Shown piece by piece: positions 51,935 through 62,483 of a stretch of DNA of 64,000 nucleotides. The stretch lies in the sequence record MZ417521. The stretch is one strand, 5' to 3'. The position numbers were made by a program, and so were the translations under genes. The stretch is from Escherichia phage 132. Within the stretch, counting starts at the first letter, position 1. Each line of letters starts with the position of its first letter. Under the pieces are notes generated by a model. That model worked only from the letters and a program-made list of their open reading frames with translations, did not search any database and was not told where the DNA came from.

Positions 51935-51942
51935 TATAAATA
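51935..51942 (+). promoter_or_regulatory. Late promoter TATAAATA for gene 34
   Basis: Exact TATAAATA 35 nt upstream of ATG 51977. Confidence 0.55.
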
Positions 51943-55854: not shown

Positions 55855-56973
55855 ATGGAAAAATTTATGGCAGAGTTTGGACAAGGATATGTCCAAACGC
55901 CATTTTTATCGGAAAGCAATTCAGTAAGATATAAAATAAGTATAGCGGGTTCTTGCCCGCTTTCTACTGCAGAAGGACCATACGTTAAATTTCAGGATAA
56001 TCCTGTTGGAAGTCAAACATTTAGCGCAGGACTTCATTTAAGAGTTTTTGACCCTTCTACAGGAGCATTAGTTGATAGTAAGTCATATGCTTTTTCGGCT
56101 TCAAATGATACTACATCAGCTGCTTTTGTTGGTTTCATGAACTCTTTGACGAATAATAGACTTGTTGCTATATTAACTAACGGAAAAGTTAATTTTCCTC
56201 CTGAGGTAGTATCTTGGATAAGAACCGCAGGAACGTCTGCTTTTCCATCTGATTCTGTATTGTCAAGATTTGACGTATCATATGCTGCCTTTTATACTTC
56301 TTCTAAAAGAGCTATTGCATTGGAACATGTTAAACTAAGTAATAGAAAAAGCACAGATGACTATCAAACTATTTTAGATGTTGTATTTGATAGTTTAGAA
56401 GACGTCGGAGCTACAGGATTTCCTAAAAGAACATATGAAAGTGTCGAGCAATTTATGTCAGCAGTTGGTGGAACTAATAACGAAATTGCGCGATTACCAA
56501 CTTCAGCTGCTATAAGTAAACTATCTGATTATAATTTAATTCCTGGTGATGTTCTTTATCTTAAAGCACAGTTATATGCTGATGCCGATTTACTTGCGCT
56601 TGGAACTACAAATATATCTATCCGTTTTTATGATGAATCGAATGGATATATTTCTTCAACACACGCTGAGTTTACTGGTCAAGCTGGGTCATGGGAATTA
56701 AAGGAAGACTATGTAGTTGTTCCTGAAAATGCAGTAGGATTTACGATATATGCACAAAGAACTGCCCAAGCAGGTCAAGGAGGCATGAGAAATTTAAGCT
56801 TTTCTGAAGTATCAAGAAATGGCGGAATTTCAAAACCTGCTGAATTTGGCGTCAATGGTATTCGAGTTAATTATGTCTGTGAATCTGCTTCACCTCCAGA
56901 TATAATGGTACTTCCTACACAAGCATCGTCTAAAACTGGTAAAGTGTTTGGACAAGAATTTAGAGAAGTTTAA
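55855..56973 (+). CDS. 35: Long tail fibre hinge connector gp35
   Basis: 372 aa; synteny. Confidence 0.9.
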   Translation: MEKFMAEFGQGYVQTPFLSESNSVRYKISIAGSCPLSTAEGPYVKFQDNPVGSQTFSAGLHLRVFDPSTGALVDSKSYAFSASNDTTSAAFVGFMNSLTNNRLVAILTNGKVNFPPEVVSWIRTAGTSAFPSDSVLSRFDVSYAAFYTSSKRAIALEHVKLSNRKSTDDYQTILDVVFDSLEDVGATGFPKRTYESVEQFMSAVGGTNNEIARLPTSAAISKLSDYNLIPGDVLYLKAQLYADADLLALGTTNISIRFYDESNGYISSTHAEFTGQAGSWELKEDYVVVPENAVGFTIYAQRTAQAGQGGMRNLSFSEVSRNGGISKPAEFGVNGIRVNYVCESASPPDIMVLPTQASSKTGKVFGQEFREV

Positions 56974-57004: not shown

Positions 57005-57012
57005 TATAAATA
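57005..57012 (+). promoter_or_regulatory. Late promoter TATAAATA for gene 36
   Basis: Exact TATAAATA 25 nt upstream of ATG 57037. Confidence 0.55.
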
Positions 57013-57734: not shown

Positions 57735-60700
57735 ATGGCTACTTTAAAACAAATACAATTTAAAAGAAGCAAAACCGCAGGAGCACGTCCTGCCGCTTCA
57801 GTATTAGCCGAAGGTGAATTGGCTATAAACTTAAAAGACCGTGTACTTTTTACTAAAGACGATCAAGGGAATATCATTGATCTGGGTTTTGCTAAGGGTG
57901 GTAGTATTGACGGGAATGTTATTCATATAGGAAACTATAATCAAACCGGTGATTATGCCCTGAAAGGTACTTTTACCCAAACAGGTAGTTATGCGGCATC
58001 CGGAAGTATAACAGCAAATGGTGATATTACTGCAAAAACCCGTTTAATGACAGATAATGGTGAAGTTCTTGTACGAGGTACAGGAACCACTCATGTTCGA
58101 TTCCAGGATTTGGCTGATGCACGTGAAAGAGGCATAATTTATTCACAATCACGCCCAGGAAATACCAAGCAAATCTTGAACGTTCGCGTCCAGGATTACG
58201 CTAATTCAACATCTAATATTTTTGCATTCAACGGTGATGGTTTATTTTATGCCCCATCTATTTCCGGCGGAACATCAGTAAAATCTCCAGTAATTTATAC
58301 CAATACTGTTAATACAGACAGTAAGAATATTGGCGATTACGATATATCTTCATTAGCAAATAATAATTCTGACACAGATAAAAACTATTTGCGCATTGTA
58401 CGTACCGATCCAGCGGCCGCAATGCTCCATGAAATTTGCGAAAATAACGGCATAAGTTGGTATTCGGGTTCGACTCCAACTGAGTATATGTTGTCATTTT
58501 CTTATTCTGGTGGGCTTCAAGCAGGCCATTCAATTGCAGTAGGTATGGAATCAATGCCTATGACATATTCAGCCTTAGGTAAAGGTTCTATTGCTCTTGG
58601 CGATAATGATACCGGGCTAAAATGGCATCAGGATGGATATTTCTATACAGTAAACAACGGAACAAGAACTTTCATCTATGGTCCAGGAGAAACGCAAAGC
58701 CTTAGAAAAATGGTTATGGCTTATTCTCCAGATGGGCTTCTTATGACAACGCCACCGACAGAAAACTATGCTTTGGCTACTGTTGTTACTTACCATGATA
58801 ATAACGCGTTTGGAGATGGTCAGACTCTTTTAGGATATTACCAAGGTGGTAATTATCATCATTATTTCCGCGGTAAGGGTACTACAAACATTAATACTCA
58901 CGGCGGTTTATTAGTTACTCCAGGCAATATTGACGTTATTGGTGGTTCGGTTAATATTGATGGTCGTAATAATGCTTCTACTCTGATGTTTAGAGGTAAC
59001 ACAACTGGTAGCAGTTCAGTTGATAATATGACAATTTCTGTATGGGGTAATACGTTTACTAATCCTAGTGTAGGTAATCGTAAAAACGTCATGGAAATTT
59101 CTGATGCAACTAGTTGGATGAGCTATATTCAAAGACTTACAACAGGTGAAGTAGAAATGAACGTTAACGGTTCATTTGAATCATCTGGTGTTACTGCTGG
59201 ACATAGAGGAGTTCACACAACAGGTGAAATTTCATCTGGAGCAGTGAATGCGCTTCGCATTTGGAATGCAGATTATGGAGTCATTTTCCGTCGTTCAGAA
59301 AACAGTCTTCATATTATTCCGACTGCTTACGGTGAAGGTAAAAATGGAAATATCGGTCCACTTCGCCCGTTCCGTATGGACCTTGATACAGGTAAAGTAA
59401 GTATTCCTAATATGGATACTACTAATTTGACTATGAACTCAAATGGTTCTATTAAATTTACTGGTCATGGTAATGGTACCGAGCTGTATATTAATCAGTA
59501 TGGGCAAGCGGCACCGATTTATCAAGAAATTAATAATGATTCCGCTTCTGCTTATATTCCAATTATAAAACAGAAATACTTAAATGGCGGTATAATGTGG
59601 TCTATGGGAACAGAACTTAATTCCGGTGATTTTGTAATCCATAGAATTAATGCCGCCGGTGATGAAAACCAAATTATTAAATTTGATAGTAACTGCGTTC
59701 CGCATTTCCCGGATAACGTGCTGGTTGGCGGTGATATTAACATGAAAGGCGCGATGACTTTTGACGCCGGACGTTTAGGATCACGAGATTATTTTAAATT
59801 TAACCATTGGGGTGATAGTAATAATGCTCGTGATAACATCATCCAGTTAGAAGATAGTCAAGGCGCCCATTTTTCCACTGAACGTACTTTAGCGACTGGT
59901 GCAATTAAAACTCGTTTCTTTGGCGAAACATTCACTGATGGTACATTATACCTAAATCAGATGAATAATAGCTCTGAACGATTCCATATCAATAATTGGG
60001 GAAATTCAGAAGTTGGTCGCGCGGCAGTGATGGAAGTCGGTGATTCCAAAGGTTATCACTTCTATACGGAACGCAGGACAGATAACAGTTTGACGTTTGA
60101 TGTTGCTGGCGATTTTACTGTGCATGGATCTTCCGGGATTACTATCAAAACCTCTACTGGTGCTCGCCATGTTTGGTTTAGAGGTGATAGCGATATAGAA
60201 AAGGCTGTTATTTGGGCGACCAATGATGGTATTTTACATATACGAAATAATTTTGGGGGTTCATTTAGTCATCACTTCCAGGGCGCAATGATTAAAGCGG
60301 GAGAGCGTGTTCCTTATGCCGGAGATCAAGGGCTTATTCGCGGTGAAGTTTCTGGTGGTGCTTATGTGGATTGGAGAGGCCGCCCTGCTGGTTTGTTGCT
60401 TGACTGTCAACAAAGCGTTGATAGTGCTCATGCTATTTGGAAAGCGGTTGATTGGGGGCGTAACTACATCGCTGCTCTGGACGTTCATATGCCCGGTAAT
60501 AGTAATAATACTGCAGCAGCGGTTCTCCATGTTCAGTCTGCTGATTATCAATTCCATGCAAGTGGAGAATTTCATGCCACTGGTAACGGAAGCTTTAACG
60601 ATGTGTATATTCGTTCTGACCGTCGCCTTAAAGACAATATAGAAGATTATACAGGAAATGCAACTGATTTAATCGGTAAACTGAAAGTTAAAACCTACGA

Positions 60701-60968
60701 TAAAGTTAAATCATTATCCGACCGTGAAATTATCGGTCATGAGATCGGCATTATCGCACAGGATTTACAAGAAATATTACCAGAAGCGATTAATATTTCG
60801 AAAATTGGCAATCTTGATAAACCAGACGAAGTTCTGACAATTTCTAACTCTGCTGTGAATGCTCTTTTAATTAAGGCCATTCAGGAAATGAGTGAAGAAA
60901 TTAAAGAATTGAAAACGCCTTTCTTCACTAAAATTGCTCGCAAAATTGGTAAATACTTTAAATTCTAA
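57735..60968 (+). CDS. 37: Long tail fibre distal subunit gp37 with C-terminal intramolecular chaperone (peptidase S74-like) domain
   Basis: 1077 aa; C-terminal ~116 aa begin S-DRRLKDNI (Ser961/Asp962 at 60615-60620), the signature at the autocleavage site of tail-fibre chaperone domains. Confidence 0.9.
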   Translation: MATLKQIQFKRSKTAGARPAASVLAEGELAINLKDRVLFTKDDQGNIIDLGFAKGGSIDGNVIHIGNYNQTGDYALKGTFTQTGSYAASGSITANGDITAKTRLMTDNGEVLVRGTGTTHVRFQDLADARERGIIYSQSRPGNTKQILNVRVQDYANSTSNIFAFNGDGLFYAPSISGGTSVKSPVIYTNTVNTDSKNIGDYDISSLANNNSDTDKNYLRIVRTDPAAAMLHEICENNGISWYSGSTPTEYMLSFSYSGGLQAGHSIAVGMESMPMTYSALGKGSIALGDNDTGLKWHQDGYFYTVNNGTRTFIYGPGETQSLRKMVMAYSPDGLLMTTPPTENYALATVVTYHDNNAFGDGQTLLGYYQGGNYHHYFRGKGTTNINTHGGLLVTPGNIDVIGGSVNIDGRNNASTLMFRGNTTGSSSVDNMTISVWGNTFTNPSVGNRKNVMEISDATSWMSYIQRLTTGEVEMNVNGSFESSGVTAGHRGVHTTGEISSGAVNALRIWNADYGVIFRRSENSLHIIPTAYGEGKNGNIGPLRPFRMDLDTGKVSIPNMDTTNLTMNSNGSIKFTGHGNGTELYINQYGQAAPIYQEINNDSASAYIPIIKQKYLNGGIMWSMGTELNSGDFVIHRINAAGDENQIIKFDSNCVPHFPDNVLVGGDINMKGAMTFDAGRLGSRDYFKFNHWGDSNNARDNIIQLEDSQGAHFSTERTLATGAIKTRFFGETFTDGTLYLNQMNNSSERFHINNWGNSEVGRAAVMEVGDSKGYHFYTERRTDNSLTFDVAGDFTVHGSSGITIKTSTGARHVWFRGDSDIEKAVIWATNDGILHIRNNFGGSFSHHFQGAMIKAGERVPYAGDQGLIRGEVSGGAYVDWRGRPAGLLLDCQQSVDSAHAIWKAVDWGRNYIAALDVHMPGNSNNTAAAVLHVQSADYQFHASGEFHATGNGSFNDVYIRSDRRLKDNIEDYTGNATDLIGKLKVKTYDKVKSLSDREIIGHEIGIIAQDLQEILPEAINISKIGNLDKPDEVLTISNSAVNALLIKAIQEMSEEIKELKTPFFTKIARKIGKYFKF

Positions 60969-60974
60969 TAACAA

Positions 60975-60987
60975 GGGGCATTGCCCC
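60975..60987 (+). terminator. GGGGC-AUU-GCCCC hairpin after gene 37
   Basis: 5-bp GC stem followed by TTT; gene 38 SD follows, so possibly an RNA stability element. Confidence 0.35.
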
Positions 60988-61001
60988 TTTGGAGATAAAT
61001 T

Positions 61002-61781
61002 ATGGCAGTAGTTGGTGTTCCTGGTTGGATTGGAAGTTCATCCGTAAATGAAACAGGACAACGATGGATGAGTCAAGCGGCTGGTCAATTAAGATTGGGT
61101 GTTCCTTGCTGGATGAGTCAATTTGCAGGACGCTCAAGAGAAATTATTCACACACTTGGAGCAGACCATAACTTCAATGGTCAATGGTTCCGAGATAGAT
61201 GTTTTGAGGCAGGTAGTGCACCTATAGTGTTTAATATCACTGGAAATTTAGTATCATATAGTAAAGATGTTCCATTATTCTTTATGTATGGCGATACACC
61301 AAATGAATATGTTACTTTGAATATTCATGGTGGAGTTCATATGTGGGGACGAGGTGGTAACGGTACTGTAAATGGAAACCCAGGCACAAATGGCGGCGAT
61401 GTAATCCAAAATGATATCGGCGGAAGACTTCGTATTTGGAACTATGGCGTTATTGCATCAGGCGGCGGTGGTGGTGGTGCAGTGTCATTACAGAATAGCT
61501 GGGCGCCAAATGCTACAGCAGGTGGCGGTGGTGGTAGACCATTTGGCATCGGCGGAGGCGGCGTTAATTGGCCGGGTGGTAATGCTAGTTATGACGCCCC
61601 GGGCGGTGCCGGTTACACTTCCCAATTCGGCGGAGGCAATGGCGGTGATGCTGGAGGTCGGGGCGGAGATGGATGGGGTAATCACTTATCTAGATCTGGC
61701 GGTGGTGCTCCTGGCAGAGCAGTATTCGGTTCTTCACCATCATGGGGCGCTACAGGCACGATCTACGGCTCCTGGATTTAA
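61002..61781 (+). CDS. 38: Receptor-recognising adhesin gp38 (T2-type, glycine-rich motifs)
   Basis: 259 aa; several poly-Gly islands ([41 protein letters not shown]) separated by variable segments, as in T2-family gp38. Confidence 0.85.
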
Positions 61782-61826: not shown

Positions 61827-62483
61827 ATGGCAGCACCTAGAATATCATTTTCGCCCTCTGGTATTCTGTTTGGTGTTCTAGATCGCTTGTTCAAAGATAA
61901 CGCTACCGGGAAAGTTCTTGCTTCCCGAGTAGCTGTCGTAATTCTTTTATTTATGATGGCGATTGTTTGGTATAGGGGAGATAGTTTCTTTGAGTACTAT
62001 AAGCAATCAAAGTATGAAACATACAGTGAAATTATTGAAAAGGAAAGAAATGCACGCTTTGAATCTGTCGCCCTGGAACAACTCCAGATAGTTCATATAT
62101 CATCTGAGGCAGACTTTAGCGCGGTATATTCTTTCCGCCCTAAAAACTTAAACTATTTTGTTGATATTATAGCATATGAAGGAAAATTACCTTCAACAAT
62201 AAGCGAAAAATCACTTGGAGGATATCCTGTTGATAAAACTATGGATGAATATACAGTTCATTTAAATGGACGTCATTATTATTCTGATTCAAAATTTGCT
62301 TTTTTACCAACTAAAAAGCCTACTCCCGAAATAAACTACATGTACAGTTGTCCATATTTTAATTTGGATAATATCTATGCTGGAACGATAACCATGTACT
62401 GGTATAGAAATGATCATATAAGTAATGACCGCCTTGAATCAATATGTGCTCAGGCGGCCAGAATATTAGGAAGGGCTAAATAA
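61827..62483 (+). CDS. t: Holin T
   Basis: 218 aa; single N-terminal TM segment and large periplasmic domain; matches T4 T by recall. Confidence 0.95.
   Translation: MAAPRISFSPSGILFGVLDRLFKDNATGKVLASRVAVVILLFMMAIVWYRGDSFFEYYKQSKYETYSEIIEKERNARFESVALEQLQIVHISSEADFSAVYSFRPKNLNYFVDIIAYEGKLPSTISEKSLGGYPVDKTMDEYTVHLNGRHYYSDSKFAFLPTKKPTPEINYMYSCPYFNLDNIYAGTITMYWYRNDHISNDRLESICAQAARILGRAK

Follow-up and report, generated by a model that had tools for sequence, protein, structure and literature searches.

The tail fibre locus at positions 57735-61781 of the analysed sequence of Escherichia phage 132 (the window hereafter refers to this whole stretch of 64,000 nucleotides) very probably constitutes a T2-type receptor-recognition module of a Tequatrovirus, in which the chaperone of gp37 would be cut off, gp38 would cap the exposed tip and OmpF would be bound. 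No sequence feature contradicts this explanation. All features described here lie on the plus strand. According to the open reading frame list, gene 37 (57735..60968) encodes the long tail fibre distal subunit as a precursor of 1077 amino acids. It is followed by gene 38 (61002..61781, with 61781 being the final base of the stop codon), which encodes a T2-type tail-fibre tip adhesin of 259 amino acids, and by the holin gene t (61827-62483; Phage_holin_T, E = 1e-116). Hence, the gp38 gene sits between a gene 37 with an S74 C-terminus and holin t. Both gene products have exact matches in Escherichia phage 132 (QWY90617.1 for gp37 and QWY90618.1 for gp38) and were already annotated in the deposit; as such, the module is an ordinary and well-described T-even long tail fibre tip.

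In the proposed mechanism, the last 117 residues of the gp37 precursor, a Peptidase_S74 chaperone, would drive the distal beta-helical tip to trimerise and fold. Upon completion of folding, a dyad of Ser961 and Lys966 would cut the Arg960-Ser961 bond, which would release the chaperone and bare a tip that is flat and hydrophobic and has NDVYIR as its last residues, so that mature gp37 is predicted to comprise residues 1-960. One gp38 monomer would then cap this tip via its N-terminal attachment domain (Trp9, Trp22, Trp37). The C-terminal half of gp38 would form a polyglycine-II sandwich, the five distal loops of which would attach reversibly to the outer-membrane porin OmpF as primary receptor. 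T2 and T6 share the gene order, a processed gp37 (here predicted) and a gp38 adhesin.

Two Pfam families jointly span the full 259 amino acids of gp38, namely Gp38_N (PF21721; residues 1-42, E = 1.5e-19) and GP38 (PF05268; residues 47-259, E = 3.8e-83). The best match among solved structures is PP01 gp38 (PDB 9V85, E = 3e-73), while S16 gp38 (6f45_D) was matched with an E-value of 6e-48, and the glycine-rich region aligns to both without large gaps. Glycine accounts for 65 of the 259 residues (25%), with 51 of them located in residues 116-259. Runs of six (154-159), five (174-178), four (184-187) and twice three glycines (210-212 and 233-235) are accompanied by nine GG pairs. In an alignment of 11 gp38 sequences, invariant glycine columns, including those at 154-159 and 174-178, are flanked by variable loops. 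Since Peptidase_S74, GP38 and Gp38_N all match, neither the glycine pattern of gp38 nor the tail of gp37 is a product of chance composition. The initial annotation had taken the 259-aa protein with poly-glycine islands encoded by the next gene for a T2-family gp38, which the two Pfam families and the PP01 and S16 structures corroborate. It had also considered the variable segments between the glycines to be likely receptor determinants and had proposed an alignment of gp38 to map them and to predict the receptor. These segments indeed map onto the distal loops that set the receptor in S16, PP01 and RB51, and the alignment yielded the positions of loops A-E and the prediction of OmpF.

The receptor-binding region (residues 116-259; 61347..61781), in which glycine-rich motifs of the polyglycine-II sandwich alternate with hypervariable loops, belongs to the RB51/Bas46 OmpF type. 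Its identity is 100% with the corresponding region of RB51, 99% with those of Bas46 (ChristianSchoenbein) and fPS-2 and 97% with that of FL33, whereas HMD-9, T6, T2, S16 and PP01 share only 49-55% identity with it. Loop A (residues 122-127, TVNGNP; 61365..61382), which was aligned from loop A of PP01, is identical across all OmpF-type gp38s. Loops B (residues 163-172; 61488..61517), C (residues 186-190, GGVNW; 61557..61571) and E (residues 223-231, DGWGNHLSR; 61668..61694) were likewise aligned from PP01, and loop D (residues 205-209, YTSQF; 61614..61628) contains Gln208 (codon CAA, 61623-61625), the equivalent of RB51 Gln206. All five loops are identical to those of RB51, Bas46, FL33 and fPS-2, for which OmpF dependence was determined experimentally: OmpF is the receptor of Bas46 according to the BASEL supplementary table and that of RB51 according to RB-TnSeq, ompF is needed by FL33, FL31 and FL34, and fPS-2 and fPS-90 use OmpF together with the LPS core in Yersinia. 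Because all receptor loops are identical to those of experimentally OmpF-dependent phages, OmpF is the predicted primary receptor of phage 132, and by homology gp38 would bind it. The binding domain is furthermore under purifying selection, with an omega of about 0.04 in comparison to both Bas46 and RB51. A literature search for the receptor of phage 132 returned none; the phage is named in one other paper only, where it is a BLAST hit. The significance of a receptor that may be called from sequence as OmpF is purely practical: it could be useful for the design of phage cocktails and for anticipating resistance via mutations in ompF, ompR or envZ. The call concerns the primary receptor; a secondary one may be inner-core LPS or Kdo.

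Near-identity to OmpF-type gp38s is strong but not absolute evidence, because one loop substitution can switch the receptor. In RB51, the exchange Q206L alone redirects the phage to OmpW. It is therefore conceivable, albeit improbable, that the T2-type module of phage 132 uses OmpW, OmpC, Tsx, OmpA or FadL as primary receptor. In addition to the RB51 substitution, this would be in line with the situation in HMD-9, the nearest backbone relative, whose gp38 has another binding domain that resembles that of T6; host-range cassettes have therefore been swapped in this lineage. However, the five loops and all of residues 116-259 are identical to those of the OmpF-dependent RB51, and Gln rather than Leu is retained at position 208. 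Moreover, OmpF dependence is known for four independent phages whose binding domains are 97-100% identical, and identity to T6 (Tsx), PP01 and S16 (both OmpC) and T2 is limited to 49-55%. RB68 was dropped as a natural OmpW reference; its record KM607004 has Gln at position 206, as RB51 does.

Comparison with the known gp38 proteins suggests how this allele was assembled. Its N-terminal attachment domain (residues 1-46; 61002..61139) is of the T6 subtype, with 100% identity to T6, 98% to HMD-9 and 57% to RB51, and contains Trp9, Trp22 and Trp37, which are invariant in the 11 aligned gp38s including that of S16. In the S16 structure, the three conserved tryptophans of gp38 plug into the gp37 tip, and attachment domains are known to pair with gp37 subtypes in a lock-and-key manner. 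By homology, gp38 would be present in the virion. The beta-helix (residues 47-115) is 90% identical to that of PP01, with which the glycine-motif scaffold is also shared; the loops differ, identity over residues 116-259 is 53%, and PP01 binds OmpC of O157 via loop E. In contrast to the identical attachment domain, the binding region shows only 50% identity to that of T6, and 55% to that of T2. Judging from the sequence, gp38 is chimeric and combines an attachment domain of the T6 type with a binding domain of the RB51 type; the junction falls at about nt 61235-61335, within the beta-helix domain. Phage 132 also differs from RB51, Bas46, FL33 and fPS-2 in its gp37, which is HMD-9-like; its distal part has about 40-70% DNA identity with the gp37 genes of RB51 and fPS-2. 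The OmpF cassette is nearly unchanged across the genera Tequatrovirus, Mosigvirus and Krischvirus, and dS in comparison to Bas46 is 0.17 for the cassette and 1.7 for the adjacent holin gene. It may be speculated that gp38 is a recent recombinant, in which a 'frozen' OmpF cassette became joined to an attachment domain of the T6 type and to a gp37 resembling that of HMD-9, but we regard this history as rather unlikely. Outside the loops, gp38 departs from other OmpF-type gp38s at Ser14, Asn82 and Ile183, the last of which differs from Bas46, fPS-2 and FL33 and is the same as in RB51. That these three non-loop residues alter receptor use seems less likely than the recombinant history. The allele represents a further example of a gp38 binding domain exchanged modularly between T-even genera. 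Should other phages turn out to share this junction, it would represent a favoured site of exchange, which could be exploited for the retargeting of T-even phages.

Turning to gp37, the protein shows 89% identity to HMD-9 gp37, and its C-terminus, which belongs to the T6 subtype among the T-even C-termini aligned, also aligns with that of T2 gp37 (E = 3e-19). The Peptidase_S74 intramolecular chaperone domain (PF13884) covers residues 961-1077 (117 amino acids; 60615..60965), i.e. the very end of a fibre protein. Residues 961-1018 correspond to positions 1-56 of the 58 in the model, with an E-value of 5.7e-14 and 52.6 bits at a curated threshold of 22 bits. The domain opens with Ser961 (60615-60617), the first residue of SDRRLKDNI, and Lys966 (60630-60632) follows five residues on within an S-D-x-R-x-K motif, of which Ser, Asp, Arg and Lys are invariant in all ten T-even gp37 C-termini aligned. 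The chaperone region matches S16 gp37 (6f45_A, E = 2.9e-7), whose structure aligns across the junction of fibre and chaperone, as well as the ICA domain of MYRF (7dc3, E = 0.0055). The initial annotation had recognised SDRRLKDNI at the start of the last ~116 residues and a Peptidase_S74-like chaperone in the gp37 tail. Both statements hold, as the motif starts at residue 961 (nt 60615) with 116 residues following the serine, and the PF13884 match is accompanied by the conserved Ser and Lys.

By homology, gp37 would be cleaved, and the cut proposed earlier after Ser961 is probably misplaced by a single residue. S16 gp37 is cleaved between DLNVS and SDRRIKK, T5 pb1 between Thr1263 and Ser1264, and in the latter the serine departs with the chaperone, likewise in the K1F endosialidase. 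Because the S16, T5 and K1F homologues cut before the serine, the scissile bond is most likely Arg960|Ser961, between nt 60614 and 60615, which would release 117 residues. The K1F endosialidase and T5 pb1 resemble gp37 in that a trimeric fibre ends in a Peptidase_S74 domain and in that the Ser...Lys dyad has equal spacing (Ser1264/Lys1269 in T5). In contrast to these two proteins, chaperone loss in phage 132 would bare a dock for a separate adhesin and not the receptor-binding site itself. The gp37-gp38 complex of S16 (PDB 6F45; Dunne et al. 2018) has the same two-gene architecture, a cleavable gp37 chaperone starting with SDRR(I/L)K and a gp38 that docks via three tryptophans and comprises a beta-helix as well as a polyglycine-II sandwich. 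It differs in the residues before the cut (DLNVS instead of NDVYIR), in the gp38 loops and in gp38 identity, which amounts to about 50% over the whole protein and to 48% within the binding region. Its receptor is Salmonella OmpC, compared to the predicted OmpF of phage 132.

The S74-like domain could in principle be a degenerate remnant, with gp37 remaining unprocessed and gp38 binding elsewhere than at a newly exposed tip. We consider this very improbable, since both catalytic residues (Ser and Lys) are conserved, as is the GxIAQ...LPE core, and since the domain has 96-100% DNA identity with that of HMD-9. Furthermore, processing is established for S16 gp37 and for T2 gp37. A T4-type tip, in which gp38 would only be an assembly chaperone that does not enter the virion, leaving receptor binding to the C-terminus of gp37 itself, has the syntenic gene order 37-38-t as its sole support and is hardly credible, as gp38 lacks similarity to T4 gp38 (best BLASTP E = 2.1) and matches adhesin Pfam families and solved adhesin structures instead, while gp37 ends in a cleavable-type S74 domain and aligns with T4 gp37 over residues 1-636 only, without the T4-type needle domain (T4 gp37 residues ~785-1026). 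A PDB search likewise gave no match of gp37 to the T4 gp37 tip structure. At the sequence level we therefore ruled out the T4-type tip, in agreement with the initial annotation, which had placed the phage in the T2-type group.

The T4-type late promoter motif has 17 matches in the window compared to 8.5 expected, including those at 51935 (before gene 34), 57005 (before gene 36) and 61800 (before t). The match upstream of gene 36 reads TATAAATA (57005..57012). A separate late promoter for gene 38 was considered and rejected, as the motif scan found no match between 57005 and this gene; genes 36, 37 and 38 therefore probably form one late transcription unit. In the gap separating gene 37 from gene 38, the scan for intrinsic terminators gave no match, and neither Rfam families nor tRNAs were detected in the entire window. 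Directly 3' of the gene 37 stop codon lies a stem-loop (AAGGGGC-ATT-GCCCCTT; 60973..60989), after which the Shine-Dalgarno sequence GGAG of gene 38 follows (60991-60994). Its fold energy is -11.9 kcal/mol with a z-score of only -0.89, which is not significant, and only three T's follow; it was thus rejected as a terminator. Nevertheless, the stem is conserved in Bas46, RB51, T2, S16 and T4, where compensatory changes affect both of its sides, and it may have a role in mRNA stability or translational coupling.

Genes 37 and 38 lie next to each other on the + strand. Gene 37 (57735-60968, 1077 amino acids) codes for gp37, the distal subunit of the long tail fibre, and gene 38 (61002-61781, 259 amino acids) codes for gp38, the tip adhesin. 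The two products, delimited using the ORF list and the raw sequence, exactly match the proteins deposited for Escherichia phage 132 (166,922-bp genome) as QWY90617.1 ('putative long tail fiber protein') and QWY90618.1 ('putative receptor-recognizing protein'), and the locus was also retrieved from a sequencing run. The following ORF (61827-62483, 218 amino acids) encodes the T holin (t; Pfam profile E 1e-116). Sequence counts showed that the initial annotation had described the locus accurately, both in its start coordinate 60615 and in calling gp38 glycine-rich. The motif SDRRLKDNI begins at residue 961 of gp37, the serine codon occupies nt 60615-60617, and 117 residues extend from Ser961 to the C-terminus. 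gp38 contains 65 glycines (25% of 259 residues), 51 of them within residues 116-259, including runs of six (154-159), five (174-178) and four (184-187), two runs of three and numerous GG pairs.

Two Pfam families cover gp38 from end to end, Gp38_N (1-42, E 1.5e-19) and GP38 'phage tail fibre adhesin' (47-259, E 3.8e-83). Among solved structures, it matched the receptor-binding domain of PP01 gp38 (9v85, E 3e-73) and S16 gp38 (6f45_D, E 6e-48). Furthermore, the C-terminus of T2 gp37 aligns with that of the window gp37 (E 3e-19). A T4-type tip was rejected, as the T4 gp38 chaperone shows no detectable similarity to the window gp38 (best BLASTP E 2.1) and the alignment with T4 gp37 is confined to residues 1-636 of gp37, which means that the T4 receptor-binding needle is missing. 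The module is thus T2-type, as initially proposed, and represents a textbook case of an already known host-range module. In the S16 crystal structure, three gp38 tryptophans plug three symmetry-related hydrophobic pockets at the base of the gp37 trimer; Trp9, Trp22 and Trp37 of gp38 are invariant in all 11 aligned adhesins, S16 included. S16 gp38 contains a polyglycine-II sandwich built from ten glycine-rich motifs, with five distal loops as the proposed receptor-binding site.

The proposed chaperone domain at the gp37 C-terminus was recovered as Peptidase_S74 'chaperone of endosialidase' (residues 961-1018, model positions 1-56 of 58, E 5.7e-14, 52.6 bits with a Pfam cut-off of 22 bits), and the domain therefore starts precisely at Ser961. 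The same region matched S16 gp37 (6f45_A) and had a weak match to the autocleavage domain of human MYRF (7dc3), a known S74 relative. In an alignment of ten T-even gp37 C-termini (window, HMD-9, Bas46, fPS-2, FL33, Skers, RB51, T2, T6 and S16), the four specified residues of the S-D-x-R-x-K motif (Ser961, Asp962, Arg964 and Lys966 in the window gp37) are invariant throughout, and a G-x-I-A-Q...L-P-E core is conserved too. Cleavage itself is a prediction, and the earlier placement of the cut after Ser961 is probably one residue too far downstream. In T5 pb1, Lys1269 activates Ser1264, cleavage falls between Thr1263 and Ser1264, and the serine departs with the chaperone, as it does in K1F; S16 gp37 is cut at DLNVS^SDRRIKK, and for the fPS phages the cut was predicted after DVYIR. 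Only in the phi29 appendage was the serine modelled as the last mature residue. Because the S16, T5 and K1F homologues and the fPS prediction place the cut before the serine, gp37 should be cleaved at Arg960|Ser961, so that mature gp37 would comprise residues 1-960 and a 117-residue fragment would be released. Further upstream, residues 415-572 (58977-59450) resemble the C-terminal trimerisation region of gp34 (Pfam Gp34_trimer, E 2e-8; PDB 4uxe, E 3e-12), and three similar 'WGN...D...(Y/H)F...ER' repeats occur at about 436-466, 690-716 and 752-781.

In a phage BLAST collection without the own record of Escherichia phage 132, HMD-9 was closest to the window over 24 kb (94.9% identity). In a sliding-window comparison, HMD-9 is 96-100% identical from about 59235 to 61235, a stretch that spans distal gp37 with its chaperone domain and then the first third of gene 38. 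Past about 61335 it falls to 49-60%, while RB51, Bas46, fPS-2 and FL33 rise to 97-99%. At the amino acid level, the first 46 residues of gp38 show 100% identity with T6 and 98% with HMD-9, as against only 57% with RB51. A T6/HMD-9-like 5' part followed by an RB51-like 3' part indicates that gene 38 is a chimera, in which a T6-type attachment domain is joined to an RB51-type OmpF-binding domain at a putative recombination junction within 61235-61335 (codons ~78-110). The T6-type attachment domain is paired here with a T6-subtype gp37 C-terminus, which conforms to the lock-and-key rule of Trojet et al. linking the two. Compared to the Mosigvirus Bas46, dS is 0.17 for gp38 (omega 0.04) and 1.7 for the adjoining holin gene, which argues that the binding cassette moved between genera recently and is under strong purifying selection. 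Both points are in line with earlier publications, according to which gp38 is exchanged as a module and its phylogeny predicts the receptor across genera. gp37 itself is a patchwork: over 100-nt segments, identity with any one of six relatives swings between >95% and <65% (57935-58735 and 59335-59735), and the best relative changes several times, from HMD-9 to Bas46 (~58335-58635) and then to FL33 and RB51 (~58935-59235).

Tblastn against annotated phages revealed gp38 identities of 99.2% with Bas46 (ChristianSchoenbein), phiC120, ESh27 and G2540, 98.5% with fPS-2, 97.3% with FL33 and 91.5% with RB51 and RB68. Residues 116-259 are identical to RB51 (100%) and nearly so to Bas46 and fPS-2 (99%) and FL33 (97%), whereas HMD-9, T6, T2, S16 and PP01 share only 49-55%. 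The distal loops, mapped from PP01, correspond to residues 122-127 (A, TVNGNP), 163-172 (B, 10 residues), 186-190 (C, GGVNW), 205-209 (D, YTSQF) and 223-231 (E, DGWGNHLSR), and all five are identical among the window, Bas46, RB51, FL33, fPS-2 and Skers. Receptors of these close relatives are known from experiments. OmpF is listed as the primary receptor of Bas46 in the BASEL supplementary table. Dependence on ompF was shown for FL31, FL33 and FL34, with a smaller effect of tolC, and in Yersinia pseudotuberculosis resistant mutants and complementation revealed that fPS-2 and fPS-90 use OmpF and the LPS core. RB51 was assigned to OmpF by RB-TnSeq, and Q206L alone, in loop D/HVS3, redirects it to OmpW. 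The equivalent glutamine is retained here as Gln208 (CAA, 61623-61625). Since the loops are identical to those of OmpF-dependent phages and Gln208 is kept, OmpF is the predicted primary receptor. The tolC effect on the FL phages may reflect the lower OmpF expression of tolC mutants. The initial observation was thus confirmed and its interpretation supported, with the cut moved to Arg960|Ser961 and OmpF added. Published work already covers the family, its structure, its mechanism and the OmpF specificity of precisely this binding domain, and only the combination of parts is particular to phage 132, on whose receptor no paper was found in the literature. In the RB68 record (KM607004), gp38 codon 206 is CAA (Gln), as in RB51, while a 2026 preprint describes RB68 as carrying Q206L (T at nt 617), giving OmpW specificity. 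The discrepancy reflects either different stocks or a record that is older than the mutation.

The T4-type late promoter motif (TATAAATA) occurs 17 times in the window (8.5 expected from shuffles), including just upstream of gene 34 (51935), gene 36 (57005) and t (61800). A motif scan of the window found none before gene 38, so genes 36, 37 and 38 are probably transcribed as one late transcript. Directly 3' of the gene 37 stop lies a stem-loop (AAGGGGC-ATT-GCCCCTT, 60973-60989), followed by a GGAG Shine-Dalgarno sequence and the gene 38 start. No T run follows it and its reading as a canonical terminator was rejected. Judged by fold energy alone, the stem-loop is not significant (z -0.89), but compensatory substitutions in both arms preserve the stem in Bas46, RB51, T2, S16 and T4, where the loop is often UUCG or UACG. 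Neither Rfam families nor tRNA genes were detected in the 64-kb window. The proximal hinge connector gp35 (gene 35, 55855-56973) matched Pfam ILEI, an interleukin-like EMT inducer/FAM3-type domain, at residues 59-127 (32.5 bits, cut-off 27; E 1.2e-7).
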